Part shown: positions 40,848 to 62,133 of the stretch, one piece after another | Layout of the letters: every line of letters starts with the position of its first letter | How positions within the stretch are numbered: position 1 is the stretch's first letter | Assembly: GCA_035716045.1 (NCBI GenBank) | Contig: DASTKI010000057.1 | Coordinates: forward strand, 12,677 to 76,676 | Reading direction: 5' to 3' | DNA: 64,000 nucleotides | Source: Ktedonobacterales bacterium | Lineage (GTDB): Bacteria > Chloroflexota > Ktedonobacteria > Ktedonobacterales > JADMIN01 | The notes under the pieces: generated by a model | What the model was told of the DNA's origin: nothing | The model's input: the letters and a program-made list of their open reading frames with translations, nothing else | The model's database searches: none | Translations under genes and position numbers: made by a program

Positions 40848-41867
40848 TCAACGCCGGGCTTGGATGCGCTCCAATAGCGCGGGTTGCGCGGGCGCGGCCA
40901 CCGCCGCTGCGACATCACTCGGAAGCTCCGTCAACTCGAGTGTGATGGGGAGCTGGATAAGGCGTCGCAAGTCCTCAGATGAGTAGATCGAGCGGTCGCG
41001 CCGCATGAGCGCGACCAGCAGGAGCGTGGTCACAAGCAGCCCAACCGCAAGCCCAATGCCGCCGCCAAGCAGAAACCCCTTGGCGCGGGAGACGGGCTTG
41101 CTGTCGACATTGGGCGCGTCCACAATGCTATAGAGGCCGCCAGTACCGTTCCCAACAGTGGCGAGTTGTGATTGGAGCTGGTTGATGTTGGCCTGGAGCG
41201 CATCGGCGTTAGTCTGGGCGGCTTGCGCCTGCTGGAGCAGCTGGCTGTAGGCTGGGTCCGTAAATGCCTGCGCGCCAGGATGGGAGGCCGCGTAGTTGGC
41301 AGCCACGCGCGTCGCCTCGCTCGCGGCCTGTTTGGCCTGGAGCAGCTGGCCCTGATAGGCCTGGATCAACTGCTTGGCCTCAGCGATGGAGAAGCTCGTC
41401 GCTTGCGCTTCGAACTCACCTACGACGGCAGCGACGACTTGCTGGGCTATCTTGGGACTCTTATTGTCATACGTGATCTGGAAGAGGTTATAGCCCACCG
41501 CCGTCGGAATGACCTTGGTGGAGAGCTCATGCTCGATAGCATCGTTCAGCTTGCGGGGATCGGCGCGGGTAGCGGCGTCGAAGGTTGAGGCCAGGTCGGT
41601 CTGTTTCGCGACCGCCAGGTCAAAGGAATGGGCCTGGAGCAACTCAGTGAGCGCGGTCACCTGGGTGCTGGCAGGCGTCGAGTTGAGGTCCGCTTCGGGG
41701 CCGGTGGCGCCAATCACGGAATACCGCTGGAGGGCCCATAGCGTCGCCGTGCCCTCGTACTGGCGCGGCTGCGCCCATACGAAGGCCAGGGCGGTGACAA
41801 TCGGGATGATGAGGAGCGCGGCAATTATCACTCCATGCCGGAAGATCAACTCTAGCGTTCGCCGCAT
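40848..41867 (-). CDS. wzz: Wzz / polysaccharide co-polymerase (chain-length determinant) protein
   Basis: N-terminal TM (VIIAALLIIPIVTALAFVWA) followed by PRQYEGTATLW, a long coiled-coil ectodomain, and a C-terminal TM (GFLLGGGIGLAVGLLVTTLLLVALM). Confidence 0.8.
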   Translation of the reverse strand: MRRTLELIFRHGVIIAALLIIPIVTALAFVWAQPRQYEGTATLWALQRYSVIGATGPEADLNSTPASTQVTALTELLQAHSFDLAVAKQTDLASTFDAATRADPRKLNDAIEHELSTKVIPTAVGYNLFQITYDNKSPKIAQQVVAAVVGEFEAQATSFSIAEAKQLIQAYQGQLLQAKQAASEATRVAANYAASHPGAQAFTDPAYSQLLQQAQAAQTNADALQANINQLQSQLATVGNGTGGLYSIVDAPNVDSKPVSRAKGFLLGGGIGLAVGLLVTTLLLVALMRRDRSIYSSEDLRRLIQLPITLELTELPSDVAAAVAAPAQPALLERIQARR

Positions 41868-42373: not shown

Positions 42374-44251
42374 ATGCGCGCGGATGTGGCTGATCGTGTG
42401 ATCAGTGGCGAGCCGGAGGGCGTCCCAGGCCACAAACGACACGCCGCTGATAGTCACGGTCATCTGCGGATCGTGGTCAGCAATACCGTCATCTCGCTTG
42501 CCGGTCAGGTTGTCACCTGGCTCTCGACGCTGGCGCTGACGATGGCCTACGGACGCTTCCTGGGCCCCGCCGGCTTTGGCGAGTTGTATCTGGCGATCAC
42601 GCTGACCGGGCTCATTGGCTTCCCGTTAGAGTTCGGCTTCAATCAGCAAATCATCCGCGAGGTGGCGAGCGCGCCTCATCGGGCGCAGCGGTATGTCTCC
42701 AGCGCGCTGCTGCTCAAAGTAGCGTTGTGGGCGCCCTTGTGCGCCGCGTTGATGATCGCCGCCGCCCTCCTGCACTATAGCCCAGAAGAGCGTGTGGTGG
42801 TGGCGCTGAGCGGACTGACGCTGCTGGTGACCTCGATCGGCGCGGCGTTCGGGGCGATGCAGATCGCCGTTCACCGCAATATCGTGCCGGTGTCCGGCTT
42901 GATCGTCGAAAAGGTTCTCGATGCCGCCGTAGCGTTCCTCTTGCTGCGCTTCCTGCATGTCGGCGTCATCCCGGTGGCCGTCGTGCTGTTGGTGGGCGCG
43001 TCGCTCAACGCGTCGTGGCAGGCGTTCTGGTTTTACCGGCTGGAGCGTCCAATCTTCGCGCTCGACCTCGCCACCATACGCGAGATCGTGTATACGAGCG
43101 TGCCGTTCCTGCTCTATGGCGCGCTGGGCGTCATCTACTACCGGATTGATACCGTATTGCTCGGCGCGCTCGATGGCGACGCGGTGGTTGGGCGCTACGG
43201 CGCGGGCTACAAGATCTTCGACACCCTGATCTTCCTTCCCGGGCTCATCATGTCCACGGTGATGTACCCGTTGATGGCCCGCCTCTCCACAGATGACCCC
43301 AAGGCATTCCGTGTGGCGATCGAGAAGTCAATGAACTTCCTGCTGATCTGCGGAATGCCACTGGCGACAGGGTTAGGGGTAGCGGCGCCCGCGATCGTCG
43401 GATTCCTCTACCATCATGAGGAATTCGCGCGCACGACGCTGGTGATGGAGGCGCTAGCTCCTGGGCTGATTCTGCTCTATGTCAATTCGGTCATTAGCAA
43501 CATCATCATTACCAGGCATCGGGAGAAGTCGCTGGTCTGGATGGCGGCTGTGGCGATGGTCCTGAATATCAGCCTGAATCTGCTCCTCATTCCGCGCTAT
43601 CACGAGGTGGCGGCGGCGCTCGTAACCTCGATCACCGAGGCGGCGCTGCTGGTCATGGGCCTGTTTGCTGTCCCGCGCGATCTCATCCCGCTCGGCAGCC
43701 TGCCAACCCTGGCGAAGTCGCTGCTTGCGAGTGCGACGATGGCGCTCGTAATTCTGGCGTTGGACCACTTCACGATCCTCGTTATCATCCCCGCCGCCGC
43801 GGCGACCTATATCGCAGTGGGCGCTGTGGCGCGGCTGGTTCCACGCGCGGATGCGCTGGCGCTGGTGGCGGCGGTGCGTCGCAAGGTGGGGCGTGGCGCG
43901 ACGGAGGCGGAAACGGCCAACGTCACGGAAGTGGCGGAGGCGATGGGCTCTGTCGCCGCGGTTGAGTCAGTGGAGATTACCGAACCAGTACCAGCCGTGC
44001 GCGTCGCTGGCGCGTCGGTCATCGCCGCGCGCGCCCACGAGCGCAGGAGCGCGCCGCGCTCGATGCCGCTCGCCGAAATCTATGCCATGAGCCGGCCCGC
44101 GGCGCGCGCCCGACTCGTGACACAAGCAGGCCCGAGATCCACACAGCCGCCGGCGCGCGGCCGGAGTAGCGCGGTAGCGACGCGATTGGCGCGGCGCGCG
44201 GTGGCCAGCCAACCTATCCGTGCGCGGCGTCTGACGGTATCACCCGCGTAA
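42374..44251 (+). CDS. wzx: Oligosaccharide flippase (Wzx/MOP superfamily) with a ~140-aa hydrophilic C-terminal extension
   Basis: NTVISLAGQVVTWLSTLALTMAYGRFLGPAGFGELY and about 12-14 TM spans. The Ala/Arg-rich tail after ~aa 480 may be partly non-coding, and the start is uncertain. Confidence 0.75.
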   Translation: MRADVADRVISGEPEGVPGHKRHAADSHGHLRIVVSNTVISLAGQVVTWLSTLALTMAYGRFLGPAGFGELYLAITLTGLIGFPLEFGFNQQIIREVASAPHRAQRYVSSALLLKVALWAPLCAALMIAAALLHYSPEERVVVALSGLTLLVTSIGAAFGAMQIAVHRNIVPVSGLIVEKVLDAAVAFLLLRFLHVGVIPVAVVLLVGASLNASWQAFWFYRLERPIFALDLATIREIVYTSVPFLLYGALGVIYYRIDTVLLGALDGDAVVGRYGAGYKIFDTLIFLPGLIMSTVMYPLMARLSTDDPKAFRVAIEKSMNFLLICGMPLATGLGVAAPAIVGFLYHHEEFARTTLVMEALAPGLILLYVNSVISNIIITRHREKSLVWMAAVAMVLNISLNLLLIPRYHEVAAALVTSITEAALLVMGLFAVPRDLIPLGSLPTLAKSLLASATMALVILALDHFTILVIIPAAAATYIAVGAVARLVPRADALALVAAVRRKVGRGATEAETANVTEVAEAMGSVAAVESVEITEPVPAVRVAGASVIAARAHERRSAPRSMPLAEIYAMSRPAARARLVTQAGPRSTQPPARGRSSAVATRLARRAVASQPIRARRLTVSPA

Positions 44252-44286: not shown

Positions 44287-44925
44287 ATGGTCACACAGCA
44301 GCACGATATGGCGGCGAGCGCTACGCGGGCGAAGGCTCTCGCGGCGCTCGCGAGCGCCGCATCGTCGCATGCGCGCGACGTTGCACGCGCGGCGATCAAG
44401 TACGCGACGAACCATGTCATCGCGCATATCCCTTCCTATACCGTGCGGCACTGGTGGTACCGTCGCGCGCTGGGCTGGTCGCTCGACCCGACAGCGAGCA
44501 TTCTGCTCAGTCAGCAGATCCAGATGGCGGGCCTGCGGACGAGCGGGGCGCGGGTCTCGATCGGCCCAGGGGCTGTCATCAACGCGGGCTGCCTGCTCTA
44601 TACGACCGGCGGCCTGGCCATCGGGCGGGAGGTCAGCGTATCGGCGGGCGTGTGGCTGGTGACGGGCACGCACGACATGAATCACCCCGACTTCCCGGCG
44701 GAGTTTCATCCGATCGTGATTGGCGACTACGCGTGGATTGGGTCGCGAGCGATCATCCAGGCGGGCGTGACGGTCGGCGAGGGCGCGGTCGTGATGGCGG
44801 GGGCCGTGGTGACACGTGATGTGGCGCCCTATGCGGTGGTGGGGGGCGTGCCGGCGCGGCAGGTGGGTGAGCGCGCGCTACGCTCGCCGCGCTACGAGCA
44901 GCGCTACCGACCGCTGTTCGAGTAG
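44287..44925 (+). CDS. Left-handed beta-helix (hexapeptide) sugar O-acetyltransferase
   Basis: Hexapeptide repeats IGDYAWIGSRAIIQAGVTVGEGAVVMAGAVVTRDVAPYAVVGGVPAR. Confidence 0.8.
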   Translation: MVTQQHDMAASATRAKALAALASAASSHARDVARAAIKYATNHVIAHIPSYTVRHWWYRRALGWSLDPTASILLSQQIQMAGLRTSGARVSIGPGAVINAGCLLYTTGGLAIGREVSVSAGVWLVTGTHDMNHPDFPAEFHPIVIGDYAWIGSRAIIQAGVTVGEGAVVMAGAVVTRDVAPYAVVGGVPARQVGERALRSPRYEQRYRPLFE

Positions 44926-44980
44926 CGCGCGGCTTTCAGCGAATGGCGTCATACGTGATGGTTTGGGGGATTCGGCGGGC

Positions 44981-46342
44981 ATGAATCTGGTAGCGTATTC
45001 GATGAAGACCAAAGGTGGCGCGGCGTTCGGACGGCGGCTGTGGACGGTCTTCACGCGCTTCGGGCTGACGGAGGGGCGCACACGGCGCTCATTTCAGGCG
45101 ATGATCGAGGCGCTACGCCCCTATGACAGCGCGCCGACGTTTTTCGTCCCGGCCACTGTGCTGGAGCGCAGCCCAAGCCTCATCCGCCGCGTGCAGCGCA
45201 TGGGCGCGGAGGTCGGCATCCACGGCTACGTCCACAACGATTATCGCGCGCTGCCAAGCGATGAGCAGGTAGAGCAGATCAACGCGGCGATCGAAGTGTT
45301 TCGCCGGCAGCGCGTCGCCTTTGAAGGATTCCGCAATCCCTATCTCGGCTGGAACGAGGACTCGCTGGAGGCCTTCCGGGAGCTGGGCTTCGTCTACGAC
45401 AGCAATGAGGCGGTCATACACGACGTGATCGAGCCGGCCAAGCTGCCGCCCACGCTGGCGGACAGCTTCCGCCGCTCGCTCGAGTTGTTCCAGGCGATTC
45501 CTTACACCGAGTACAATCTGCGCCCGCATACTGAGGATGGGCTGTTGCGCATCCCCACCAGCATCCCCGATGATGAGATGCTATTCGATCGGCTGCGCAT
45601 GCCCACTGATCAGGTTGGCGAGCTGTGGAGCGAGGTGATGCGGCGGGTGTATGCGGTTGGCGGTGTGTATGTACTGAACCTGCACCCGGAGCGTGGGATG
45701 CTAGCCCGCGGCGCGATGGATCAGTTGCTCGCGACGGCGAGCGGGCTGGCTCTGCCAGTATGGGTGGCGCGGCTGCGCGACATCGCGGCCTGGTGGCGCG
45801 AGCGCGCATCGGCGCGCGTCGAGGTGTCTCCGGCGGGCGCTGGGCGCTGGCAGGTGACGATCACGGGCTCACAGCGAGCGGCGCTGATCGTGCGAAACGC
45901 TGTTACGCAGGGCGCGCAGGCGACGGAGTGGCCGGGCGGCGACCAGCTCGTGTCGGGCCAGCGCTATGTGGTGGAGTCGGCGGTGTTCCCCGGAGTGGCG
46001 ATCTCTCCGCGCACGCCTGCCAGCGTGGAGGAGTTGCTGCGCGAACAAGGCTACCCGGTCATGCGCGCGGTGGCGAGTGAGGCGGCGAACTACGCGGTAT
46101 ATGTGGACCAGCCCGAAGGGCTGGGGAAGACGCGCCGCGAGCGGCAGGAGGCGGCCAGCGCGCTCATTCACAACATCGAGCGCGGCGACGCGCCACTGGC
46201 TCGTATGGGGCTGTGGCCGGAGGGCAAGCGGGCGGCGCTCGCGATCACTGGAGACGTAGACTCCGTGACGATTCAGGACTTCTTCCTGCGCATCGTCGAG
46301 GTGCGGCGGTATACGCCCGCGCGCGGGCGGGCGGCGAGCTAG
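44981..46342 (+). CDS. Polysaccharide deacetylase family protein (long form)
   Basis: NodB-like N-terminal half (PTFFVPATVLERSP...EVGIHGYVHNDY) and a C-terminal block (ALAITGDVDSVTIQDFF). The start is ATG 44981. Its stop TAG overlaps the stop of the convergent hydrolase gene within CTAG (46339-46342). Confidence 0.75.
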   Translation: MNLVAYSMKTKGGAAFGRRLWTVFTRFGLTEGRTRRSFQAMIEALRPYDSAPTFFVPATVLERSPSLIRRVQRMGAEVGIHGYVHNDYRALPSDEQVEQINAAIEVFRRQRVAFEGFRNPYLGWNEDSLEAFRELGFVYDSNEAVIHDVIEPAKLPPTLADSFRRSLELFQAIPYTEYNLRPHTEDGLLRIPTSIPDDEMLFDRLRMPTDQVGELWSEVMRRVYAVGGVYVLNLHPERGMLARGAMDQLLATASGLALPVWVARLRDIAAWWRERASARVEVSPAGAGRWQVTITGSQRAALIVRNAVTQGAQATEWPGGDQLVSGQRYVVESAVFPGVAISPRTPASVEELLREQGYPVMRAVASEAANYAVYVDQPEGLGKTRRERQEAASALIHNIERGDAPLARMGLWPEGKRAALAITGDVDSVTIQDFFLRIVEVRRYTPARGRAAS

Positions 46343-47283
46343 GCGGGCGAGTCGTCGGTATGCCGGTCGAGCCAGGCGTCGAGGTCGCTGAGGACCTGGT
46401 CGGTCATGGTATCACTCAGCAGGTTGACGTAGGCCCCGGGATATTCATGGAACTCTTTATCGGGCAGCTTCATGGCCTCGTAGAAGTCCCGGCTGGCCTG
46501 GCGCGGAGTGACCTGGTCGTCGCCGCCGAGCAGTATCAGCAGCGGGATGGGGAAGCTGGCCGCCTGCGCGCTGACGCGCCGCATAGCCGCGCCGTTCTCC
46601 ATGAGCCAGCGCGGCGTGACTTTGGTGTTGCGCAACGGATCTGTGCGCGCGAACTGGTTGAACGCGGCGTCGTGGGAGATGAGATTCCAGCTCTTGTCCG
46701 CCTGGTGTGTGACATCAAGCGTGAGGCGCGGCGCAATCACTGAGAGCGCGCCCGCGAGCAGTCGCACGCCGAGCGGGAGCGCCGCGACCTTGAGGACGGG
46801 CGAGATACAGCAGACGCCGCGCACCTCACTCGGGCGCCGCATCGCGTATTCCAGCGCGATTGGCCCGCTGCCGGTATGTCCGACAAGGAAAATGGGCCTG
46901 CCCAGCTCCGCTTCGCGTATGGCCTGAAGCAGCGCGGCCAGATCGTCGAGATACTCATCCCGTGCGCTCACATAGCCGCGCTGGCCGGGAGAGCGACCCT
47001 AGCCGCGGCGGTCTGGCGCATAGATCGCGTAACCGCGGAGCGTTTCGTGGATCGGTAGGTTCATGTACCAGCCGCTCTGCGCGAAGTCACCGTGTATCAT
47101 GACGATCACGGCGCGCGACATCCCGGCGTCTGGCAGCCAACGCTGATAGTAGAGCCGCAGGCCATCAGGGGCTGAGAAATAGCTCTCTTCATGCCTCATG
47201 CGCTGTGCCCCTCCCACCTGTCCCACCGCCCGCCGTTGATGCCAGAGGCCGTACGCTTGCCGTTCGGGCAAATCATACCCCAT
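46339..47283 (-). pseudogene. Alpha/beta hydrolase (lysophospholipase/monoacylglycerol-lipase-like) interrupted by one in-frame TAG
   Basis: Track ORFs 46999..47283 and 46339..46971 are in the same frame. They read ...YAPDRRG*GRSPGQRGYVSARDEY... across the TAG at 46999-47001. The nucleophile elbow is GHTGSG (unusual, Thr where Ser is expected). Confidence 0.75.
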
Positions 47284-47343
47284 CGCGTCGCGACGCGATA
47301 GGGCTCCTGGCGCTCGCGCGTGGCAGCGTGTGCGTTGGCAAGC

Positions 47344-48603
47344 TTAGCGCCTGGGCGCGGCCGCCCTGGCAGGCGCTGGCGTGGCGGCATGACTGGCGGC
47401 GCCACGCTTGAGGCCGAGGGCGCGGACGGCGACACTACCAGCGTCCATCAGCGCGGGGATCGGGTCGCGCCAGTCGAAGACGGAGAAGGTCGTCTTGCCG
47501 GCGACGAGCGTGCGCAGGTAGGCCAGCGGCGTGGTGAGGCCAGCCCGCGTCTCCTGAATGCCAGCGGGGATATCGGTGACGGCGCGTAGCCAGCGGTAGT
47601 CATAGTGGGGTGGGGCGGCGGGCAGAGGAAGGCCGAGCGTGTCACAATACTGCATGTACGGGAAGTCGAGGCCGCAGGCGATAGCAAGGGTATGCCAGCC
47701 CCAAGGGCGGACGTTGATGTCGAGCAGCTTGTTGACGCCGTTGCGCGGATCGCGCTTGAACTCGACTTCGACCATGCCCGTCAGCCGCATGTAGGCGAGC
47801 AGCTTGCGCGCGTCATCGAGGATGCCGGGGATCTCGCGCGCTTCGACGAAGCTGCTGCCGAGGCCGTAGTCAATTGGATACTGGCGGGTGCGCTGGGCCG
47901 TCATCGAGGCGACGATCTCGCCCTCGCGCGCGTAGGCGGCGACGGAGAACTGCTGCGAGCCGCCGCCGGGAATGATCTCCTGGATCATGATCTCATCGGG
48001 GGACATGGAGCCGAGCGCCAGCTGGTATTGCGCTCGCATCTCCTCCAGGCTATCCGCAGGCAAGGCTTTGAGGCGCAGTGAGTATTGGAGGCGAGTGGAG
48101 ACGGCGGGCTTGATGATCGCGGGATAGGTGATGTCGAGCGCGGCGAGGTCGTCCTCGTCGCGCGGGCGCCAGGTGGCGGGAATGGCGACGCCCGTCGCGC
48201 GGGCCATCTGATTCATATGGTGCTTGTCGCAGGCCCACTTGAGCGTCTCCCAACCCTGGGTGACGAGGGTGAAGTGGGTGGCGAGGGCGTCGCGATGGCG
48301 CGCGACCAGCTCCACGACCTCGTCCTGGGTGGGTATGAGCAGCCAGCCCATGTAGCTCGGCTCCTGACCGAGGGTGAGTAAGAAATCAACGAAGCGCACG
48401 CCCTCCATCGGGCCATCCCAGCGACGGCGCTCGACGACGTGGCGTGAGAGCCACGCGGCGCGCGGCGTGTTGTCCACTACCACACTGCGCACTCCGCGCC
48501 GCCCCAGGCTGCGGATAACGCCCAACGCCTTGAAGTCGCTGCCCAGCAGCACGACGCCAGGCTTGCTCGCCGCTTGCTTCATCTGCTCGCCCCCAACACT
48601 CAC
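47344..48603 (-). CDS. ATP-grasp carboxylate-amine ligase (COG3919 / D-aspartate-ligase-like)
   Basis: VVLLGSDFKALGVIRSLGRRG pre-ATP-grasp Rossmann-like start, PAIIKPA, IMIQEIIPG and MVEVEFKRD motifs. It starts 10 nt after the upstream flavoprotein stop. Confidence 0.75.
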   Translation of the reverse strand: MSVGGEQMKQAASKPGVVLLGSDFKALGVIRSLGRRGVRSVVVDNTPRAAWLSRHVVERRRWDGPMEGVRFVDFLLTLGQEPSYMGWLLIPTQDEVVELVARHRDALATHFTLVTQGWETLKWACDKHHMNQMARATGVAIPATWRPRDEDDLAALDITYPAIIKPAVSTRLQYSLRLKALPADSLEEMRAQYQLALGSMSPDEIMIQEIIPGGGSQQFSVAAYAREGEIVASMTAQRTRQYPIDYGLGSSFVEAREIPGILDDARKLLAYMRLTGMVEVEFKRDPRNGVNKLLDINVRPWGWHTLAIACGLDFPYMQYCDTLGLPLPAAPPHYDYRWLRAVTDIPAGIQETRAGLTTPLAYLRTLVAGKTTFSVFDWRDPIPALMDAGSVAVRALGLKRGAASHAATPAPARAAAPRR

Positions 48604-48613
48604 GTGCGGTCGC

Positions 48614-49849
48614 TCAGTTCATCGCCACACGGCGGGCGATCTGCCGAGCAGTCGCGCCGGTGCCGGCGATGAAGCGGCAGATCGGGCCGAAGTTGTAGCC
48701 AGCGATGGCGCCGGTGAAGAAGAGGCCGGGCACAGACGACTCGAACCATTCGTTCAGGATGGTGTAGCCATCGTTCGTCGCGATGCGCTGGCGCAGGCCC
48801 TTGTCGAGGAAGGTCAGCTTTTCGACATTGGGCGCGTAGCCGGTGCCGAGGAAGAGGTGATCGAGGTCGCGGGTCGTGCCATCAGTGAGCGCCAGGTGTA
48901 GTCGCTCGCCGCGCTGCTCGGCCCGCCGGACCTCGGTGCGCTCGGTGACGCGCACGACGCCATCCACGCGCGGGCGCAGCCACTGCGCGCCCGAGGCGCG
49001 CACGCAGCGCTGGTCAATCTTCACGCGCGCCTGTTCAGGCAGCAGACGGAAGATGGCGGGGAAGTGGACGAGCCAGGCGACGCCAGCGGGGCCAACATCG
49101 CTGGGGGGATAGAAGATGCGCCGGGTGCGGTCGTTCGCGAGGCGGCGATCAATCCAGATGATCGGGCCGCGCGCGATGACCTCGACATCGGCGCCCGCTT
49201 CGTGCAGCAGCGCCGCCGACTCCAGCGCGCTCTCGCCGCTGCCAATCACGGCGACGCGCTTGCCGCTCCAGGGCGAGAAGTCGGCATGTTCCTGCACGTG
49301 CGTAACCAGCTCGCGCGGCAGGTCACGGGCATAGTCGAGGATGCGCGCGAAGTGGGCCACACCAGTCGCGACGACGACTTTGCTGGCCTTGATCTCGCGC
49401 CCCCCCTCAAGTGTCACACGGTAGCCCGCGCCATCACCGACGACGCTCTGGGCGTAGAGCGGCTGGATGTCGGGCGTGTGACGCTCACGGAACCAATCGG
49501 CGTAGCCCAGCAGAAAGTCCAGCGGTACCGGCTCTTCGATGGGGCGCTTGGAGAACTCCGCGTAGCGCTGCTGAGTGTATTCGCGCTCGGGATCAGAGAT
49601 GGTAATGGAGCTGAAGGTGGATTTGAGATGCATGCTCGGCGGCATGCCCTTCCAGAACTCCATCGGCTTACCAGCGATGATGGTCTCGATACCCTTGCTC
49701 CGCAGATGCGCGGTGACCGCCATACCATAGGGGCCAGCCCCAATCACCATCACAGGATCGCGTCTCGCCACACCCTCGCTCCATTCCAATGTCCTGCTCT
49801 GCGCTGGCGCGCCACATGCCGACGCCGCCGCTTTCACCACGTACCCCAT
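48614..49849 (-). CDS. Two-dinucleotide-binding-domain flavoprotein (FAD/NAD(P)-dependent oxidoreductase, monooxygenase-like)
   Basis: FAD motif VMVIGAGPYGMA, second Rossmann motif RVAVIGSGESALESA and a terminal FFTGAIAGYNFGP. The start is uncertain; I chose ATG 49849 (MGYVV). Confidence 0.7.
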   Translation of the reverse strand: MGYVVKAAASACGAPAQSRTLEWSEGVARRDPVMVIGAGPYGMAVTAHLRSKGIETIIAGKPMEFWKGMPPSMHLKSTFSSITISDPEREYTQQRYAEFSKRPIEEPVPLDFLLGYADWFRERHTPDIQPLYAQSVVGDGAGYRVTLEGGREIKASKVVVATGVAHFARILDYARDLPRELVTHVQEHADFSPWSGKRVAVIGSGESALESAALLHEAGADVEVIARGPIIWIDRRLANDRTRRIFYPPSDVGPAGVAWLVHFPAIFRLLPEQARVKIDQRCVRASGAQWLRPRVDGVVRVTERTEVRRAEQRGERLHLALTDGTTRDLDHLFLGTGYAPNVEKLTFLDKGLRQRIATNDGYTILNEWFESSVPGLFFTGAIAGYNFGPICRFIAGTGATARQIARRVAMN

Positions 49850-50167
49850 GATAGCGGGCCAGCGTACAGAGGCAATGGATGGCGAGGTGAAGACTTGGCG
49901 CCGAAGCCGTTGCGGGTGTGTAGAACGCCGTCCCCGTTCTGGGCGGATACGTTCCGCTTTGCTCCCGCCTCTCTCCCGCATCTCTACCCCACTCTGTACC
50001 TTGCTGCCACCACCCTCATGCTACGCTCGTTACGGCATCCGATATTGAGGCCGATATTAAGGGCGACAGCTCGGCGCGAGCCAACTCGCGAGACGGAGCG
50101 CGGCGCGGCGCGGTTGACCGAGAACACCGCACAACAACATCGCGGATGAAGCGGCGGAGGGACTGAG

Positions 50168-51214
50168 ATGGCGCAGGTGATCGAGCGAGCGGACGAGTTG
50201 GCGCTATTCATCGAGCGCCACACGGAGGAGCCGTTCTATTATCAGCGGCCCTGGCTCGATCTCCTCTCGCGACTCTACGGCTACCCGGTCTACACACTGA
50301 CCTCGCGCGCGCCGGATGGCTCGCTAGCGGGCTTCCTTCCGGCGCTGGCTATCCGCAGCCCGCTGACGGGCCGGCGCGTTGTATCGCTGCCGTTCTCGGA
50401 CTGCTGCCCGCCGCTGGTCACGAGCGAGGCCGCCGCGCGCGACTTGCTCGATCAGGCGCTGGCGCTGGCGCGCGATGAGCGCGCGCGCTACCTGGAGTTA
50501 CGCGCTGGGCAACTGGATGCGCTGGACGGAGCGCCGGGCCTGGCGCGCAACGATCTCTACGCGCGCTGGGTTGTGCCGCTCGATTCGGATACGCAGGCGG
50601 TCTGGAAGCGGGTCAAGTCGCCAGCGCAGCGCCAGGTCAAGAAGGCGGCCAAGCAGGGCGTCAAGGTGCGGGCGGGCGAGAGCGCGAGCGATATGGACAC
50701 CTACCACCAGCTGCACCTGCTCACGCGCTCACGCAAGCATGGGATGCCCACCCAGCCATTGCGCTACTTCCGTGAGTTGTGGGAGACGTTCGGCGCGACT
50801 GGGGGCGTGCGGCTGCTGCTAGCGGAGCATGAGGGCGCGGTGATCGCCGGGATGGTCTTGCTCGTCTCCGGCTCGACCGTTCGCTACGCCTATGGGGCGT
50901 CTGATGAGCGTGCGCTAAGGCTGGGGCCGAATGACGCGCTGATGTGGGAGGCGATCTCGTGGGCCAGCGGCGCCGGCTATACGCGCTTCGACATGGGGCG
51001 CACCGCACGCGATAACCCAGGACTGGCGCAGTTCAAGCGCAACTGGGGCGCGGTGGAAGAGCCGCTGCCCTACTATTACGCGCCAGAGGTGGCGGGCCTG
51101 GCTTCGACCTCTGAGGAGAGCTGGAAGTACCGCGCGCTGACTGCCTGCTGGAGACACCTGCCGCTGCCTGTCTCTGAGCGGCTTGGCGGCGCGCTCTACC
51201 GCCACCTGGGTTGA
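50168..51214 (+). CDS. FemAB-family / GNAT-fold (lipid II:glycine glycyltransferase-like) transferase
   Basis: The length and pattern (YQRPWLDLLSRLYGYPVYTL ... QVKKAAKQGVKV ... YHLHLLTRSRKHGMPTQPLRYF ... YAYGASDE ... FKRNWGA) match FemX/FemAB-like acyl/aminoacyl transferases. Confidence 0.7.
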   Translation: MAQVIERADELALFIERHTEEPFYYQRPWLDLLSRLYGYPVYTLTSRAPDGSLAGFLPALAIRSPLTGRRVVSLPFSDCCPPLVTSEAAARDLLDQALALARDERARYLELRAGQLDALDGAPGLARNDLYARWVVPLDSDTQAVWKRVKSPAQRQVKKAAKQGVKVRAGESASDMDTYHQLHLLTRSRKHGMPTQPLRYFRELWETFGATGGVRLLLAEHEGAVIAGMVLLVSGSTVRYAYGASDERALRLGPNDALMWEAISWASGAGYTRFDMGRTARDNPGLAQFKRNWGAVEEPLPYYYAPEVAGLASTSEESWKYRALTACWRHLPLPVSERLGGALYRHLG

Positions 51215-52572
51215 TGGCGCCGGTGGGGGAAGCGCTGCGACAGACGGGGAAGGATGAGACCATGCGGGAGTGGATCGGACGGTTGGCCGAGGGATTGCTT
51301 GGCCGTCCCCTGGTTCCGCGGGCGCGGCGCGATGGGGGCGGCTTTTTCAGTCGCCAGGCGCGCTGGGTTCTGGCGGGCGCGGGGGCGGTGGTTGTGCTGG
51401 CAGCCGCGCTCTCCGCCATCCATGCGCACGGCGAAACGCGTACGGCCACGACTGTCGCTCATTCTGGTAAGACCGGGAGCGTGGCGGGGACACACGCTCA
51501 GCGCGGCGCGCCTGTCTCACCCTTTGGTCCACTCGTGTCGCGCGGCAAGCCGGTCTTCTGTTCGCCGAGCGATCTCAGCGTGGGTGGCAAGAACGCGATC
51601 ACCAGCGGCAAGTATGGGGACTACTCCTTCTGGCGCGCTGGCGTGAACGACCTGCCGTCGTGGTGCGCGGTTCATCTCGGCGAGGGGCCGAGCCGTCTGC
51701 TGGTGGCGTGGAGCAGTGACTATATCTTCGATTACATCGCCCCCGATGGCATGACGCCGCGCGATTATACGCTCTCCGTTTCGGGCGACAGCACGGATGG
51801 GGCCAACGGTCACTGGCAAACGGCGGTGACTGTGGCGGGCAATGAGACGCGCGTGCGCGAGGCGGTGATTCCATTCGCGGGGATGTCGTGGGTCAAGATG
51901 ACGGTGACGCGCGGGCAGGCGCATGCTACGCAGCCCTACGTGACCATTGACCAGATAGACTGCTACGATGTCTCCGCCGGGCTGAACGAGACGACGCTCT
52001 TCTCCGGTGATTCGATCACGGTGATGGCCTATAACCGCTTCGATGGCTCACACCCAACCTTCGACGAGCTGATGCACCAGATGGACCCCGCGCTCTATCC
52101 GGTCATGCTTGATGAGGGCTTCGGCGGCTGGAGCTCCAGCGGCGCGGCGCAGCAGATATCAACGTGGCTGGCGCTGAATCCCGACATTCATTACTGGCTG
52201 CTCGGCTGGGGGACCAATGACGCGCTGAACATGCTGAATCCCGCGGTCTTCCACGACAACATGCAGTATCTGATTGATGCGATCAAGGCCGCGGGGCATG
52301 TGCCGGTACTGGCGCGCATCCCGGCGATGCATTTGCCGGGCGACCGAGGCGCCGCCACCGACGCGGAGATCCGGGCGCTGAACGCGCAGATAGACGCGCT
52401 GACGCAAGCGAACCACCTCATATCCGGCCCCGACCTGTACACCCTCGTCAGCCAGCGCCCGACCACATACCTGCTCGACGATGGAATCCATCCGGCGCCC
52501 GCTGGGGCCGCGGCGATGAACAACGCCTGGTATCTGGCGATGCGCGGCGCGCTCAAGGCTAGCGCGACGTGA
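51214..52572 (+). CDS. Membrane-anchored discoidin-like (CBM) plus SGNH/GDSL hydrolase
   Basis: TM anchor WVLAGAGAVVVLAAALSAI and a central jelly-roll-like domain. SGNH blocks are FSGDSIT (I), LLGWGTNDA (III) and DDGIHPAPAG (V). The ATG overlaps the upstream stop (TGATG). Confidence 0.75.
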   Translation: MAPVGEALRQTGKDETMREWIGRLAEGLLGRPLVPRARRDGGGFFSRQARWVLAGAGAVVVLAAALSAIHAHGETRTATTVAHSGKTGSVAGTHAQRGAPVSPFGPLVSRGKPVFCSPSDLSVGGKNAITSGKYGDYSFWRAGVNDLPSWCAVHLGEGPSRLLVAWSSDYIFDYIAPDGMTPRDYTLSVSGDSTDGANGHWQTAVTVAGNETRVREAVIPFAGMSWVKMTVTRGQAHATQPYVTIDQIDCYDVSAGLNETTLFSGDSITVMAYNRFDGSHPTFDELMHQMDPALYPVMLDEGFGGWSSSGAAQQISTWLALNPDIHYWLLGWGTNDALNMLNPAVFHDNMQYLIDAIKAAGHVPVLARIPAMHLPGDRGAATDAEIRALNAQIDALTQANHLISGPDLYTLVSQRPTTYLLDDGIHPAPAGAAAMNNAWYLAMRGALKASAT

Positions 52573-52607
52573 ATAGTCACGGAGCAGTGTTTGAGAATGA
52601 CGCGACA

Positions 52608-53834
52608 ATGAAGATTCTGGTTGTGACTCCTGGAGCGCCCACGCTCATGTCAGGCGGGGGCAAGCGCAATTCCTACCTGCTGCGCGCGCTGTGCGAAGCG
52701 CATCAGGTGACGCTGCTGATTGTCTCCGACGATACAGCGTGCACCGTGCGCGATATTGGATCGCTGCAAGCGGATCTGGAAGCGGCGCGCGTCGTAAGGG
52801 CGCCACTTGGCGTCTATAAGCGTGTTTGGCAGCTCGTGGCGGGGATATCGGGCCAGCCGAGTGTCACCCTGCGATTCAGCCCACCAGCGGCGGGGCGGGC
52901 GATTCGCGCGTTGCTGGCGGCTGAGCGATTCGACGCCGTCGTGTATCAGAGCGTGATCGTGGCGAACCACCGGCTGCCGCCGGGCGTGCGCATGGTAATT
53001 GACGAGCACAACCTCGAATACGAGCTGATGGAGCGCTCGGCGGCCAAAGCGCCGTCAACGCTGCGCCGCCTGCACTATACGCTGGAGGCGGCCGCGCTGA
53101 AGCGGGTCGAGCTAGGTCTGCTGGCTCGCGCCGATCTGGTATCGGTGACCAGCGAGCGCGAGCGCGAGCTGCTGGCCGAGATATTGCCGGGCGCCAGAGT
53201 GATCGTCACGCCGAACGGCGTGGATACGGAGGCGTTCGCGCCAGATCTGAAGCGGGCCGAGACGGCGGGACGCGTCATCTTCACGGGCTCAATGGACTAT
53301 CACCCAAACGAGCAGGCGGCGCACTACTTCGCAAGCTCGATCTGGCCCCAGGTGCGCGCCGAGGTTCCCGACGCGACATGGTATCTCGTGGGCGCCCGCC
53401 CGCCCGCCTCGTTCGAGCGGCTGGCCACCCTGCCCGGTGTAACAGTCACGGGCCCTGTGGCGGAGACGCAGCCGTATATGGCGGAGGCGGCAGTGGCAAT
53501 TGCGCCGTTGCTGGTAGGCGGCGGCACGCGGCTGAAGATCCTCGAGGCGCTGGCGATGGGTAAGGCGGTCGTTACGACATCGCTGGGATGTGAGGGGTTG
53601 GATGTGACATCCGGAGAGCATCTGCTGGTGGCGGATGAGCCGGGCGCTTTCGCGGAGGCGGTGGTCAGTCTGTTACACGATGAGGCCCGGCGCAGCCGCC
53701 TGGGTGCGGCGGGTCGCGCGCTGGTGGAGCGCGAGTATAGCTGGACGCGGAGCGGGCGCGCGCTCGTTCAGGCGGTGGAGCGATGCGCCACCGCGCAAGA
53801 GGAGGAGCGCCGTGTGGCTGTGGCTGACGATTAA
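52608..53834 (+). CDS. Glycosyltransferase family 4
   Basis: MKILVVTPGAP..., the GT-B C-terminal domain (VIFTGSMDYHPNEQA, GGTRLKILEALAMGKAVVTT) and the E-x7-E region. Confidence 0.85.
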   Translation: MKILVVTPGAPTLMSGGGKRNSYLLRALCEAHQVTLLIVSDDTACTVRDIGSLQADLEAARVVRAPLGVYKRVWQLVAGISGQPSVTLRFSPPAAGRAIRALLAAERFDAVVYQSVIVANHRLPPGVRMVIDEHNLEYELMERSAAKAPSTLRRLHYTLEAAALKRVELGLLARADLVSVTSERERELLAEILPGARVIVTPNGVDTEAFAPDLKRAETAGRVIFTGSMDYHPNEQAAHYFASSIWPQVRAEVPDATWYLVGARPPASFERLATLPGVTVTGPVAETQPYMAEAAVAIAPLLVGGGTRLKILEALAMGKAVVTTSLGCEGLDVTSGEHLLVADEPGAFAEAVVSLLHDEARRSRLGAAGRALVEREYSWTRSGRALVQAVERCATAQEEERRVAVADD

Positions 53835-55035
53835 GTGGCTGGTGGTGGCCGTCGAGGTTCTGGTGGCCGTCCCGACGCTCTACCTCGCGGCAGTGGCCGC
53901 GGCGGCGATCGCGCGCTCCTTCGGGGCCGGGCGTGAGGCGCCGCGAGGCGTGGATGGCGCGGGGGAGGAGGCGCGTCACCCGCGCTTCGCCCTTGTCATC
54001 CCCGCCCATGATGAAGAAGCCACCATCGGGACGCTGCTCGCGAGCCTGGGCGACGTAGATTACCCGCGCGAGCGCTTCGATATCTATGTCGTGGCCGACA
54101 ACTGCCGGGACGATACGGTGGGTGTGGTCGAGCGGTCAGGCGTGGCGCGCGCGCTCGCGCGGGTGGATACGGAGCGGCGGGGCAAGGGCTACGCGCTGGC
54201 GTGGGCGTTCGAGCGGCTGCGCGGCCATGCGCCAGCGTATGACGCCTACGTCGTCATTGACGCCGATAGCGTCGTGGATTCTCAACTGCTGCTGGCCTAT
54301 GCCCGCGCGCTTCGCAGCCGCGCGGCCGCCATCCAGGCCTCGAACGCTGTGCTGAACGTCGAGGAGAGTCCGGCGACGGCGCTGCGCTGGATCGCGCTCA
54401 CGCTGATGAACCACATCCGCCCGCTGGGCCGCAACCTCCTGGGCGCCAATTCGACGCTGACGGGCAACGGGATGTGTCTGAGCGCGGGGCTGCTGGAGCG
54501 CCAGCCGTGGCGTGCGTTCGGCCTGGCGGAAGACTACCAGTATTACCTGACCATCACGCTGGCGGGTGAGCGCATCCGCTACGCGCCGGACGCGCGCGTG
54601 CGCTCGGTCATGCCCGTGTCCTTCGAGGCGATGCAGACGCAAGACCTGCGCTGGGAGTCGGTCGGCCAGAGGCCGCCAACGTGGTCATGGGTGGCGCGGC
54701 TGCTGCGCGCGGGCGGTTGGCGGCGTATCGAGGCGGTCCTGGAGTTGATCGCGCCGCCGCTCTCGCAGTTGGTGGCGGCGGTCGTGATAGCGGACATCGC
54801 GGCGCCAGCGCTGCGTGATCCGCTGGCGATGGGGTTGGCGGCGCTGCTGACGCTGGGACTGGTGGTGTACGTGGCGTCAGCGTTCATCACGCTGCGGCCA
54901 GCGTGGCCGGTCTATCGCGCGCTGCTCAGCGCGCCGGGGTTCCTGGCCTGGAAGCTGTGGGTCACGCTGGTTTTGCGTAGGCGGCGTAGCCGCGAAGGCG
55001 CCTGGGTGCGCACAGCGCGCGCGCAGCGGTTGTAG
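53812..55035 (+). CDS. Membrane-bound glycosyltransferase family 2
   Basis: FALVIPAHDEEATIGTLLASL, VVADNCRDDT, VIDADS and a QxxRW-like motif (TQDLRWES), flanked by TM segments. GTG 53812 sits behind a GGAGGAG RBS and overlaps the upstream gene by 23 nt. Confidence 0.8.
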   Translation: MWLWLTIKWLVVAVEVLVAVPTLYLAAVAAAAIARSFGAGREAPRGVDGAGEEARHPRFALVIPAHDEEATIGTLLASLGDVDYPRERFDIYVVADNCRDDTVGVVERSGVARALARVDTERRGKGYALAWAFERLRGHAPAYDAYVVIDADSVVDSQLLLAYARALRSRAAAIQASNAVLNVEESPATALRWIALTLMNHIRPLGRNLLGANSTLTGNGMCLSAGLLERQPWRAFGLAEDYQYYLTITLAGERIRYAPDARVRSVMPVSFEAMQTQDLRWESVGQRPPTWSWVARLLRAGGWRRIEAVLELIAPPLSQLVAAVVIADIAAPALRDPLAMGLAALLTLGLVVYVASAFITLRPAWPVYRALLSAPGFLAWKLWVTLVLRRRRSREGAWVRTARAQRL

Positions 55036-55102: not shown

Positions 55103-56350
55103 GTGGCGGGAACGCGCGTGGTGAGCGTCACCTATGACTATTATCCGTTTGATGTCCGCGTGCGGCGGCTGGCGGAAGCGGCGGTGGACGCTGGCCACGA
55201 GATGGATGTAATCTGTATCCGGCAGGAGGGCGAGGCCGCCCACGAGACGTACAACGGCGTGACTATCCATCGTCTGCCGATTACGCGCGGGTTTGGCCAG
55301 TCGCTGCCGATGACCGCGCTGAATTGGCTGTGGTTCACCCTGTTGGCGGGGATCTATCTGGCCTGGCTGACGCCACGCCGCCGCTATCAGGTCATCCATG
55401 CCCACAACATGCCTGATTTTGTGGTCTTCTCGGCGCTCATCCCGAAGCTGTTTGGCGCGCGCGTGATCCTGGATGTGCAGGACGTCAGCCCGGAGCTGTT
55501 GACCGCCAAGGCGGGTGGGCATGAGCGGAAGCTGACGCGGCGCATCGCCGAGCTTCAGGAGCGTCTCTCGACATCGTTCGCCGATATCGTCGTGACGGTG
55601 GGCTGGCCGTTCGAGCGCAAGCTGCTGGAGCGCGGGACGCCTCACGAGAAGCTGCGCATCATCATCAACAGCGCCGATCCCAAGATCTTTCCAGCGGAGA
55701 AGCGCTTTGTGGCTGATGAGGCGTTGCGGCCCGTGACGCCACCGCATGACGAGACCACGCCGTTCATCATCATGTATTGGGGCACACTCGCGCAGCGCAA
55801 CGGGTTGGCGACGGCGATCCGGGCGCTTGCGCTAGCGCGCCGTGAGGCGCCCGCGCTGCGGCTCGACATTATGGGGCGCGGCGAAGACGTACCGCGACTG
55901 CAAGCGCTGGCCGAAGCGGAAGGCGTCGTGGACGCGGTGAGTTTCACCGGCCCGGCTCCGGCTGAGCGTATCGTGGATTTCATCGTCCATGGCGATGTTG
56001 GGGTCATTCCCTATACGGTGGATGGTTTCGCCGATCTGGTGCTGCCAACCAAGGCATACGAGCTGGCATGGCTGGGGCGGCCGATCATCGCGTCGGACAC
56101 GCCCGCTATTCGCTCGATGTTTCGCCCGGAGTCCATCATGCTCTGCCAGCCTGACCGGCCGGAAGAGTTCGCGCGGGCGTTCGTAGACCTGTACCACCAC
56201 CCTGAGAAGCGACGGGCGATGGTCGCTAACGCGCAAGAAGACTACGAGCCGTACCGCTGGGAGACGATGGCGCGGCAGTATGCCAGCCTGCTGACGTGGC
56301 TGGCGTCGGCGCCGCGCGCGGCGCTGCGGGTGCGGCCAGAAGCGGCATGA
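55103..56350 (+). CDS. Glycosyltransferase family 4
   Basis: GT-B fold pattern (IIMYWGTLAQRNG, DVGVIPY, KAYELAWLGRPIIASD). GTG start. Confidence 0.8.
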   Translation: MAGTRVVSVTYDYYPFDVRVRRLAEAAVDAGHEMDVICIRQEGEAAHETYNGVTIHRLPITRGFGQSLPMTALNWLWFTLLAGIYLAWLTPRRRYQVIHAHNMPDFVVFSALIPKLFGARVILDVQDVSPELLTAKAGGHERKLTRRIAELQERLSTSFADIVVTVGWPFERKLLERGTPHEKLRIIINSADPKIFPAEKRFVADEALRPVTPPHDETTPFIIMYWGTLAQRNGLATAIRALALARREAPALRLDIMGRGEDVPRLQALAEAEGVVDAVSFTGPAPAERIVDFIVHGDVGVIPYTVDGFADLVLPTKAYELAWLGRPIIASDTPAIRSMFRPESIMLCQPDRPEEFARAFVDLYHHPEKRRAMVANAQEDYEPYRWETMARQYASLLTWLASAPRAALRVRPEAA

Positions 56351-58798: not shown

Positions 58799-58871
58799 GC
58801 GCGCCTGCAAGGTCGGACCATCATCAGTCAGTCGTCGTTATCGCGCCATGCGCTTGCGGAGGAGGTGTGAC

Positions 58872-62088: not shown

Positions 62089-62133
62089 CTCGCTAATACA
62101 GCGCGCGCAATCTGATTTTCGCACGGGAGCGCA

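Follow-up and report, generated by a model that had tools for sequence, protein, structure and literature searches.

Decoration with amino acids or amides is frequent among bacterial surface glycans, and only for a few such groups is the enzyme that installs them known. The exopolysaccharide (EPS) loci of the XrtA/PEP-CTERM type carry a FemAB/deacetylase pair for whose role we know of no experimental test. ATP-grasp amidoligases decorate capsule sugars, as in Campylobacter jejuni Cj1438C (PMC11800379), and for TupA-like ATP-grasps, for example Proteus WemR, attachment of amino acids to surface polymers is predicted (PMC13419641). Here we analyzed a 64,000-nucleotide stretch of a Ktedonobacterales genome of the phylum Chloroflexota (assembly GCA_035716045.1, contig DASTKI010000057.1, positions 12,677 to 76,676), referred to below as the window, which contains a Wzx/Wzy-type glycan locus (36.6 to 60.6 kb). 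Within this locus, profile searches resolved 46339-52572 into five genes: an alpha/beta hydrolase pseudogene, an ATP-grasp ligase, a two-Rossmann flavoprotein, a FemAB/FemX-family transferase and an SGNH esterase (Table 1). The ATP-grasp ligase is the core of this module. Amino-acid decoration of surface glycans is already known; what we describe here is a different ATP-grasp family with an obligatory flavoprotein partner. Our reading, to which we give a probability of roughly one half, is that four cytoplasmic enzymes of a tailoring core (ATP-grasp ligase, flavoprotein, FemAB-like transferase and a CE4 deacetylase) act together on an amino sugar while the repeat unit that contains it is nucleotide-activated or undecaprenyl-linked and has yet to be flipped by Wzx, combining amino-acid decoration with oxygenation.

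Open reading frames (ORFs) were called mechanically, overlapping frames were chosen by third-position G+C (the G+C content of the window is about 66%), and the products were scanned against the Pfam and NCBIfam profile hidden Markov models (HMMs). The genes, coordinates and family assignments given in a preliminary description of this DNA, which had been made from the sequence alone, were confirmed by the profile HMMs, including the ATP-grasp, flavoprotein and FemAB families proposed there for the three core ORFs.

The strongest evidence that the ATP-grasp, flavoprotein, FemAB-like, CE4 and GT4 proteins belong to one putative pathway comes from natural fusions. These were sought among the 150 best representative matches of the ATP-grasp family and confirmed with Pfam and with BLASTP against the window proteins. 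The ligase occurs fused to the flavoprotein (P0378, and P0376, whose flavoprotein part is 42% and ATP-grasp part 36% identical to that of the window), to a FemAB-like GNAT protein (P0427, P0455, P0464 and P0491, the FemAB part of the last being 36% identical over residues 14 to 300), to a CE4 deacetylase (P0402, P0414 and P0441) and to a GT4 glycosyltransferase (P0445, P0406, P0450, P0377 and, again, P0441). The GT4 domains of P0445, P0406 and P0450 are related to the window GT4 encoded by 55103-56350. Other proteins join a pyruvoyl phosphatidylserine (PS)-decarboxylase-like domain to the ATP-grasp (P0362 and P0366) or carry tandem ATP-grasps (P0379, P0477 and P0485), and each fusion architecture recurs in separate 50%-identity clusters. 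The fusions strengthen an earlier suggestion that the polymer carries amino-acid or peptide decorations, possibly modified oxidatively by the flavoprotein; the chemistry of that suggestion is something we infer.

A one-genome-per-species scan with the ATP-grasp protein gave 65 loci. Most were from Ktedonobacteria, including the cultured Ktedonobacter racemifer, K. robiniae, Ktedonospora formicarum, Thermosporothrix hazakensis and four Thermogemmatispora, and the others were from Dormibacterota, Eisenbacteria and Acidobacteriota (the last at 35 to 37% identity). The window region itself was found in soil metagenomes. Twenty locus proteins were then compared by tblastn with all fetched loci, and percentages refer to 38 loci, after removal of redundancy, whose 10-kb flanks were complete. 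The flavoprotein gene lay directly upstream of the ATP-grasp gene, on the same strand, in 56 of the 56 loci where both were seen, Acidobacteriota included, with a median gap of 56 nt between the two tblastn matches. Presence in the full-flank loci was 95% for the flavoprotein, 74% for the FemAB-like protein, 68% for both the chain-length-determinant (PCP)-like and the kinase-like protein, 66% for Wzy, 61% for both the GT4 enzyme termed GT4a and the WcaF-like acetyltransferase, 53% for Wzx and 34% for CE4. The SGNH protein was present in 26% of related loci, and a homologue of the response regulator flanking the locus (36611-37639) lay within 10 kb in 37%. In 19 of 28 loci the Wzx gene immediately followed that of the ATP-grasp, and the two overlapped in L070 and L072. 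The neighborhoods searched in this way bear out the expectation that the flavoprotein/ATP-grasp/FemAB trio recurs in glycan loci. The preliminary description had seen the module as set into an otherwise conventional locus; the entire locus, module included, is instead conserved across Ktedonobacteria, and the gene order in the lineage of the window is rearranged relative to the others.

In a 90%-clustered collection, 1672 relatives of the ATP-grasp protein were scored, and a profile search of 1.84 billion representatives of 50%-identity clusters returned 14395 matches at E<=1e-3 and 2005 at E<=1e-30. This defines a large uncharacterized family of about 2000 clusters (50% identity, E<=1e-30) in which an ATP-grasp is locked to a flavin monooxygenase (FMO)-like flavoprotein. 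Gene order and fusions tie it to FemAB-like, CE4 and GT4 proteins in glycan export loci of abundant soil phyla; the family also bears on the old question of what the FemAB-like/deacetylase pair does in exosortase-type EPS loci. The same locus occurs in the cultured Ktedonobacter racemifer DSM 44963, Thermosporothrix hazakensis and Thermogemmatispora, which makes the proposal directly testable.

The resemblance to XrtA/PEP-CTERM EPS loci noted earlier holds as kinship. Among window proteins, the best NCBIfam match is TIGR03019 for the FemAB-like protein, TIGR03087 for GT4a, TIGR03018 for the kinase-like protein and TIGR03007 for the chain-length protein; for the deacetylase, TIGR03006 ranks second. 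It does not hold as membership, because all five scores fall under the curated cut-offs (177.6 against 260.35 bits for TIGR03019, 43.6 against 276.2 for TIGR03006, 244.3 against 316.65 for TIGR03087, 74.8 against 230.65 for TIGR03018 and 39.6 against 278.85 for TIGR03007), the window has no exosortase and the hosts are Chloroflexota. As the preliminary description had stated, no exosortase family was among the Pfam and NCBIfam matches of the coding-like ORFs in the window, and none was present in seven Pfam-annotated homologous contexts; the window also encodes neither a PEP-CTERM protein nor a Wza-type outer-membrane exporter. Moreover, the Ktedonobacteria locus has the added pair of ATP-grasp and FMO-like flavoprotein. 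The locus is a relative of the XrtA/PEP-CTERM system and cannot be filed as a member of it.

With the TupA-like amidoligases (the C-terminal domain of Cj1438, and WemR) the window shares an ATP-grasp in a glycan locus and an amide-linked sugar decoration, made or predicted. It differs in that its ligase is PF15632-like, has an obligate flavoprotein partner and has natural fusions to CE4, FemAB-like and GT4 domains. Membership in the TupA-like family was rejected: PF15632 was the only Pfam match at E<=0.01, and PF14305 was not found. The window locus, in addition, makes no uronic acid. We found no description of the ATP-grasp/flavoprotein pair, or of PF15632 in glycan loci, in the full-text literature.

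The ATP-grasp ORF encodes 419 aa, and an ATG at 48582 would give 412 aa. Its PF15632 score exceeds the cut-off of 29.1 bits, and its AF2 model (pLDDT, 79.5) matched many ATP-grasp ligases in Foldseek with a probability of 1.0, among them the L-amino-acid ligases RizA, BL00235 and YwfE/BacD as well as 2pn1, PurK and carbamoyl-phosphate synthetase (E values of 1e-16 to 1e-13). A sequence-level search of the PDB gave generic matches only (2pn1, E of 8e-4). The modeled fold is certain, and the structure matches resolve no specificity. Residues K165, E279/E281 and D295/N297/R299 are invariant in the homologues and fit the nucleotide and Mg sites expected from ATP-grasp sequences. No transmembrane (TM) segment was detected by hydropathy. 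The earlier designation as a D-aspartate-ligase type has for its sole basis the automatic label "D-aspartate ligase" that JGI attaches to many homologues. The enzyme so named (EC 6.3.1.12), Aslfm of Enterococcus faecium, is an ATP-grasp that adds D-Asp via its beta-carboxyl to the Lys amine of the peptidoglycan precursor. It belongs to the same superfamily and offers a mechanistic model in which a side-chain carboxyl is activated and the alpha-amine is left free; it differs in that the window context is not that of peptidoglycan.

The flavoprotein ORF is open to 49981. Because homologues are 378 to 391 aa long, translation probably starts near 49789, at neither 49849 nor 49981, so that the gene and family of the preliminary description (48614-49849) are borne out and its start is not. 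The stop codon lies 10 to 31 nt from the ATP-grasp start, in agreement with the tight coupling reported for the two genes. In addition to the Pyr_redox_2 and Pyr_redox_3 (PF13738) profiles, the product matches Lys_Orn_oxgnase (PF13434; 24.4 bits, cut-off of 21.3). Foldseek aligned the model (pLDDT, 79.5) with the bacillithiol-disulfide reductase YpdA/Bdr (the top match), the type II FMO SMFMO and the N-hydroxylases PvdA, KtzI (TM score, 0.73) and DesB, at E values of 1e-19 to 1e-17 and sequence identities of 15 to 21%. The two-Rossmann fold, the FAD/NADPH glycine motifs and a FATGY-like motif are shared with the class B monooxygenases and with YpdA/Bdr; the window flavoprotein differs from both in always being coupled to an ATP-grasp and in having its own insertion of about 50 residues (214 to 266), which is family specific and modeled with low confidence. 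We favor assignment as a class B monooxygenase (FMO/N-hydroxylase) from sequence and model, because the dinucleotide-binding motifs GAGPYG and GSGQSA and the FATGY-like DxxxLGTGY (DHLFLGTGY in the window) are conserved and the family has no CxxC motif. Membership in YpdA/Bdr was rejected, although Bdr is the top structural match, at 63.7 bits to TIGR04018 against a cut-off of 339.9. Hydropathy gave no TM segment.

The FemAB-like protein scored well above the cut-offs of both of its Pfam families (22 bits for PF13480 and 24 bits for PF02388) and is a putative double-GNAT, aminoacyl-tRNA-dependent aminoacyl transferase. Its best sequence match in the PDB is Weissella FemX (1xe4/4ii9; E of 2.5e-13). 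The two share a Pfam family, the double-GNAT architecture and a conserved Lys in a C-terminal FK motif. They differ in that only the second domain aligns, in that the substrate-binding R211 of FemX is replaced by an invariant Gln, and in that the context is that of a glycan and not of peptidoglycan. The Gln at this position is consistent with a different acceptor substrate. The conserved Lys is K290, in AQFKRNWG (FKRxWG), which is invariant in 17 homologues and which we take to be equivalent to FemX K305 from the shared C-terminal F-K motif, the HMMER alignment ending at residue 282. Among NCBIfam profiles, TIGR03019 (177.6 bits) was closer than FemX (55.9 bits) and aligned end to end (residues 11 to 348 with profile positions 3 to 330 of 330); its score lies below the equivalog cut-off given above. 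Homologues carry the JGI label "FemAB-related protein (PEP-CTERM system-associated)." No TM segment was found by hydropathy. The translational coupling to the downstream SGNH gene described earlier is present as a TGATG overlap of the FemAB stop codon with an ATG; an ATG at 51263, preceded by a GGAAGGA Shine-Dalgarno sequence, may be as good an SGNH start.

The CE4 protein probably starts at M56 (44981). It exceeds the PF01522 cut-off (23.1 bits) and shows no signal-like or TM segment by hydropathy, so it is predicted to be cytoplasmic. Conserved motifs are HGYVHxD, RNPY, IPDDEM and LNLHPE (equivalents of HxxxH, RxPY and LxH) and a C-terminal ITGDVDS, and the active site may, judging from these motifs, be circularly permuted or otherwise atypical. 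The ITGDVDS motif is at ORF residues ~478 to 486, about 30 residues before the C terminus. The SGNH protein matches PF13472 over residues 266 to 434 (cut-off of 32.9 bits), with FSGDSIT, GTND and DGIHP (DxxH) blocks intact. It has one N-terminal TM segment (residues 52 to 70), and its catalytic domain is predicted to be extracytoplasmic. The middle domain of about 170 aa (residues ~85 to 260), previously labeled a carbohydrate-binding module (CBM), had no Pfam match at E<=1, and the label is best taken as provisional. By eye, a W...PSWCAVHLG stretch in this domain is akin to discoidin/CBM32-type motifs.

From the enzyme families and folds, the catalytic-type motifs, the predicted locations, the strict or frequent co-occurrence in glycan loci and the fusions, we infer a pathway with its substrates, step order, direction of the amide bond and nature of the oxygenation. 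The GFO oxidoreductase, DegT aminotransferase and N-acetyltransferase would make a 3-amino or 3-acetamido hexose, since this trio is present and a 4,6-dehydratase is absent. The small phosphotransferase and the GT4, GT2 and GT4 enzymes would assemble the repeat unit on undecaprenyl phosphate, and the cytoplasmic CE4 enzyme would take off the N-acetyl group and bare the sugar amine. The ATP-grasp would then join the carboxyl of an amino acid to this amine as an amide, using ATP via an acyl-phosphate; the carboxyl may be that of an Asp or Glu side chain, in the manner of D-aspartate ligase acting on peptidoglycan. The FemAB-like enzyme would put a further aminoacyl residue, from aminoacyl-tRNA, on a free amine, and the flavoprotein would oxygenate, most plausibly N-hydroxylate, the amine of the substrate or product with NAD(P)H and O2. 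Wzx would flip the decorated unit and Wzy would polymerize it; a flippase acting after tailoring would account for Wzx so often following the ATP-grasp. Outside the cell, the SGNH enzyme could edit O-acyl groups after export.

Several points weigh against this pathway. Neither a uronic-acid dehydrogenase nor an amino-acid racemase is encoded in the locus to fix the direction of the amide or the amino acid, and we know of no substrate or product for the ATP-grasp family or the flavoprotein family in any of their members. The structural matches of the ATP-grasp are generic, all ATP-grasp ligases being about equal in Foldseek with no subfamily singled out, and the flavoprotein model resembles both monooxygenases and the disulfide reductase YpdA. 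In the CE4 protein, TFFVPA stands where the N-terminal TFDD motif is usually found. Some of the fusions are metagenomic gene calls and could reflect missed stop codons. CE4 and FemAB-like genes lie within 10 kb of the pair in only 34% and 74% of loci, from which it follows that the pair can work without them and that the proposed step order cannot be universal. A glycan structure of any Ktedonobacterium was not found in the searchable literature.

Variant gene contexts point to amino-acid or carboxylic-acid chemistry on sugars. A Dormibacterota-type locus (L052) has DegT, GT2, Wzy, Wzx and Wzz genes, then the pair, then GFO and hexapeptide transferase genes; it contains neither FemAB-like nor CE4 genes, and the pair adjoins the 3-amino-sugar genes. 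Around the pair of an Acidobacteriaceae locus (L061) lie genes for a thiamine pyrophosphate (TPP) enzyme, an acyl-CoA-dehydrogenase-like protein, two PCP-thioesterase (PCP-TE) proteins, a class IV (D-amino-acid type) aminotransferase, an aldehyde dehydrogenase, a FemAB-like protein and a GT4. Locus L069 combines a nonribosomal peptide synthetase (NRPS) C-A-T module, a thioesterase, a GT4 and the pair (ATP-grasp of 663 aa) with a PS-decarboxylase-like protein, a carbamoyltransferase and methyltransferases. Finally, a Chloroflexia metagenome-assembled genome (MAG; L003 at 19838-21203, on the same contig as L019) has a second, divergent ATP-grasp/flavoprotein pair 9 kb downstream of the first and in the same glycan locus. 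The second ATP-grasp belongs to PF15632 and is 26% identical, and the order is reversed, with the ATP-grasp first. In this MAG the genes for the first ATP-grasp and the FemAB-like protein are separated by one for a methyltransferase. The FemAB-like protein of another Wzx/Wzy locus (L071, 1-2778 and 3803-6685) is 54% identical; there, ComA and ComB, which are phosphosulfolactate synthase and phosphatase, respectively, are followed by an ATP-grasp-like protein of another kind, which may be a hint of a sulfolactate-type decoration. L071 also encodes a 960-aa Wzy/Wzx fusion.

Two narrower versions of the proposed pathway merit mention. It is possible, if doubtful, that the ATP-grasp activates the side-chain carboxyl of Asp or Glu so that both the alpha-amine and the alpha-carboxyl stay free; this version would explain together the PS-decarboxylase-type partners (both groups free), the FemAB-type partners (free amine) and the N-hydroxylase-type partners. 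A longer shot is that the pair forms a two-enzyme cassette for N-hydroxylation and carboxylate ligation, in either order, that would place a hydroxamate or N-oxygenated aminoacyl group on the amino sugar. Such chemistry is, to our knowledge and without a targeted literature search, known from no glycan pathway, and a metal-binding or redox-active surface polysaccharide would then be expected in Ktedonobacteria, Dormibacterota and Acidobacteriota. N-oxygenation by the flavoprotein of a sugar-bound amine or amino acid would likewise be chemistry new for glycans.

The main alternative, which we find unlikely, is that the same module makes the amide in the reverse direction. In that case the ATP-grasp would activate a sugar carboxylate (of a uronic or nonulosonic acid) and amidate it, with either an amino acid (through its alpha-amine) or another amine as the donor, and in some variants PS-decarboxylase-like partners would go on to convert the amino acid, once attached, to an amine. 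Surface glycans commonly carry amino acids in amide linkage to uronic acids, and PS-decarboxylase domains are fused (P0362 and P0366) or adjacent (L069) to this ATP-grasp family. A precedent is Cj1438C, which makes an amide from the C6-carboxylate of GlcA (PMC11800379). Neither the window locus nor its typical relatives, however, have a UDP-sugar 6-dehydrogenase or a nonulosonic-acid synthase; the ATP-grasp is not TupA-like (PF14305), and its fusion to an amine-exposing CE4 domain fits a sugar-amine acceptor better.

We regard it as rather improbable that the ATP-grasp, flavoprotein, CE4, FemAB-like and GT4 enzymes make a soluble amino-acyl glycoside, such as a low-molecular-weight thiol-like cofactor or a hydroxamate-type metabolite, and simply happen to lie at the glycan locus. 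In function the set parallels MshA/B/C/D and Mtr, and it shares with mycothiol and bacillithiol synthesis the logic of glycosyl transfer, de-N-acetylation, ATP-dependent amino-acid ligation and GNAT-fold acyl transfer on a GlcNAc-derived amine. YpdA/Bdr ranks among the top matches of the flavoprotein in both NCBIfam and Foldseek, and variant loci contain NRPS, PCP-TE and aminotransferase genes of the kind usual in metabolite pathways. The analogy is, however, one of logic: here the deacetylase is a CE4 and not an LmbE-type enzyme such as MshB/BshB, the ligase is an ATP-grasp and not CysRS-like (MshC) or BshC, and the genes lie inside a Wzx/Wzy locus. The low TIGR04018 score, the FATGY-like motif and the N-hydroxylase matches favor a monooxygenase, and the ATP-grasp overlaps or directly precedes Wzx in 19 of 28 loci, with the pair among Wzy, PCP and glycosyltransferase (GT) genes in most lineages.

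A role in the cell wall, with the FemAB-like and ATP-grasp enzymes modifying peptidoglycan stem peptides (a cross-bridge or a D-Asp-type branch) and the glycan genes being only neighbors, is very improbable. FemX is the closest solved relative, JGI labels many ATP-grasp homologues as D-aspartate ligases, and Ktedonobacteria are described as having Orn/Gly/Ser-containing peptidoglycan, but the 65 loci and seven contexts with precomputed Pfam labels place the genes with Wzx, Wzy, PCP, GT and amino-sugar genes. A tblastn search in which the window's Mur-ligase/alanine-racemase protein was the only cell-wall query, pbp genes not being searched, found no Mur or Alr similarity in 68 loci, and no mur, pbp or transpeptidase family occurs in the seven Pfam contexts. 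The consistent linkage to mur or pbp genes that would have told against the glycan assignment was not found as far as the searches went, and because of this the assignment stands on the available evidence. In addition, the FemAB-like protein is closer to the EPS-locus profile than to FemX and has Gln in place of R211, and the window's own Mur-ligase gene is 40 kb distant. Modification of a protein, either an export component or a secreted target, by a RimK-like or tubulin-tyrosine-ligase-like ATP-grasp, with the flavoprotein oxidizing a residue, is just as hard to credit: ATP-grasp enzymes do include protein-modifying ligases, and Klebsiella CfmP, an ATP-grasp akin to glycan amidoligases, is reported to cause oxidative modification of FimA (PMC13419641), but CfmP is in a different (TupA-like) family, no conserved candidate substrate protein lies beside the pair, and the fusions are to sugar-acting GT4 and CE4 domains and not to protein-binding domains.

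The alpha/beta hydrolase gene downstream of the ATP-grasp had been counted as part of the module, in parallel with the hydrolases 1 and 2 of exosortase-A loci. The minus-strand translation of 46339-47343 is a single frame with one TAG (46999-47001) inside the conserved D-R-R-G-x-G-R-S motif, and the nucleophile elbow reads GHTGSG, the GxSxG having been lost. Positions 46200-47500 are reproduced without differences in contigs from four soil-metagenome runs of two studies. The nonsense interruption recognized earlier is thus real and not an assembly error, since four independent metagenome assemblies carry the identical sequence. The nearest relative, a Chloroflexia MAG with an 85% identical ATP-grasp, retains only hydrolase residues 153 to 308 of a 5'-truncated gene, and tblastn found the gene in none of the other related loci. 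Because it is a decaying pseudogene confined to the lineage of the window, we do not consider the hydrolase a component of the module.

The other genes of the locus are given in Table 1. Assignment to the Wzx/Wzy type follows from the priming enzyme, the flippase, the polymerase and a PCP-like protein that, although its profile score is weak, has the two-TM topology expected. The DegT, GFO/IDH/MocA and NeuD/PglD-like genes form the amino-sugar trio at 57476-60583. The GT2 ORF probably has its true start downstream of the overlap with the preceding GT4 ORF. The BY-kinase-like ATPase has a low-complexity N terminus of about 110 residues and lacks the C-terminal tyrosine cluster, with a single Tyr in its C-terminal tail, and may be a nonphosphorylated ParA/MinD-like partner of the PCP protein.

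Table 1. Genes of the Wzx/Wzy-type glycan locus, in window coordinates
Feature	Coordinates	Strand	Profile matches and other attributes
OmpR/MtrA-type response regulator flanking the locus	36611-37639	+	PF00072, PF00486
Wzy_C polymerase or O-antigen-ligase-like membrane protein	37854-39638	-	PF04932, 46.7 bits; 10 TM-like segments
BY-kinase-like P-loop ATPase	39830-40777	-	TIGR03018, 74.8 bits (below 230.65 cut-off); Walker A GEGKT
Chain-length-determinant (PCP)-like protein	40848-41867	-	TIGR03007, 39.6 bits (weak); TM at residues 12-30 and ~262-290
Wzx-type flippase	42374-44251	+	PF01943, 86.5 bits; 12 TM-like segments
Hexapeptide-repeat (WcaF-like) acetyltransferase	44287-44925	+	PF00132, PF14602; NF007797, 83 bits
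CE4 polysaccharide-deacetylase-family protein	44816-46342	+	PF01522, 51.6 bits
Alpha/beta hydrolase (Hydrolase_4) pseudogene, two pieces	46339-46971, 46999-47283	-	Hydrolase_4 profile
ATP-grasp ligase	47344-48603	-	PF15632, 33.9 bits (cut-off 29.1)
Two-Rossmann flavoprotein	ORF 48614-49981, probable start near 49789	-	Pyr_redox_2, 84.5 bits; Pyr_redox_3, 82.5 bits
FemAB/FemX-family transferase	50168-51214	+	PF13480, 75.9 bits; PF02388, 53.8 bits
SGNH/GDSL esterase or acyl-transferase, membrane-anchored	51211-52572	+	PF13472, 58.8 bits
GT4 glycosyltransferase (GT4a), stp1-like	52569-53834	+	PF13692, 97.4 bits; TIGR03087, 244.3 bits (cut-off 316.65)
GT2 glycosyltransferase with TM segments (EpsU-like)	53635-55035	+	PF13641, 89.6 bits; NF041865, 215.7 bits (below cut-off)
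GT4 glycosyltransferase	55103-56350	+	PF13579, PF00534
Small polyprenyl-phosphate glycosyl-phosphotransferase (priming enzyme)	56470-57189	-	PF02397, 211.5 bits
DegT-family sugar aminotransferase	57476-58798	+	PF01041, 414.6 bits
GFO/IDH/MocA oxidoreductase (UDP-GlcNAc 3-dehydrogenase-like)	58848-59915	+	PF01408, PF22725; NF040723, 145.9 bits (below cut-off)
NeuD/PglD-like hexapeptide N-acetyltransferase	59708-60583	+	TIGR03570, 87.5 bits (below cut-off); PF00132

An Rfam scan of the whole window gave no matches, and a promoter and terminator scan of 46.0 to 52.8 kb gave counts no higher than chance. The remainder of the window carries housekeeping genes, among them a Mur-ligase/alanine-racemase fusion, pyrimidine genes, PlsX and a pentose-phosphate block. 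The fusion (2857-5508, plus strand, 883 aa) joins a complete Mur ligase (Mur_ligase, M and C domains; residues 29 to 471) to a complete alanine racemase (517 to 882), so that D-Ala supply and a stem-peptide ligase would share one polypeptide. The pentose-phosphate block, on the minus strand, is headed by a 985-aa transaldolase/phosphoglucose-isomerase fusion (28710-31667) and contains 6PGDH, G6PD, OpcA, 6PGL and Rpe, with PlsX further along. On the plus strand, 9807-11000 encodes a response-regulator receiver domain with about 270 C-terminal residues without a family and adjoins a sensor kinase gene; beside it, 11090-11791 (minus strand) encodes a member of the "8xMP" octameric membrane-protein family. 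Just beyond the glycan locus, two long ORFs without a Pfam match overlap on opposite strands (61123-62253, minus, and 61144-62088, plus). After them comes a DDE_3 transposase fragment (62277-62819, minus strand), and together these elements may represent a rearrangement scar at the edge of the locus.

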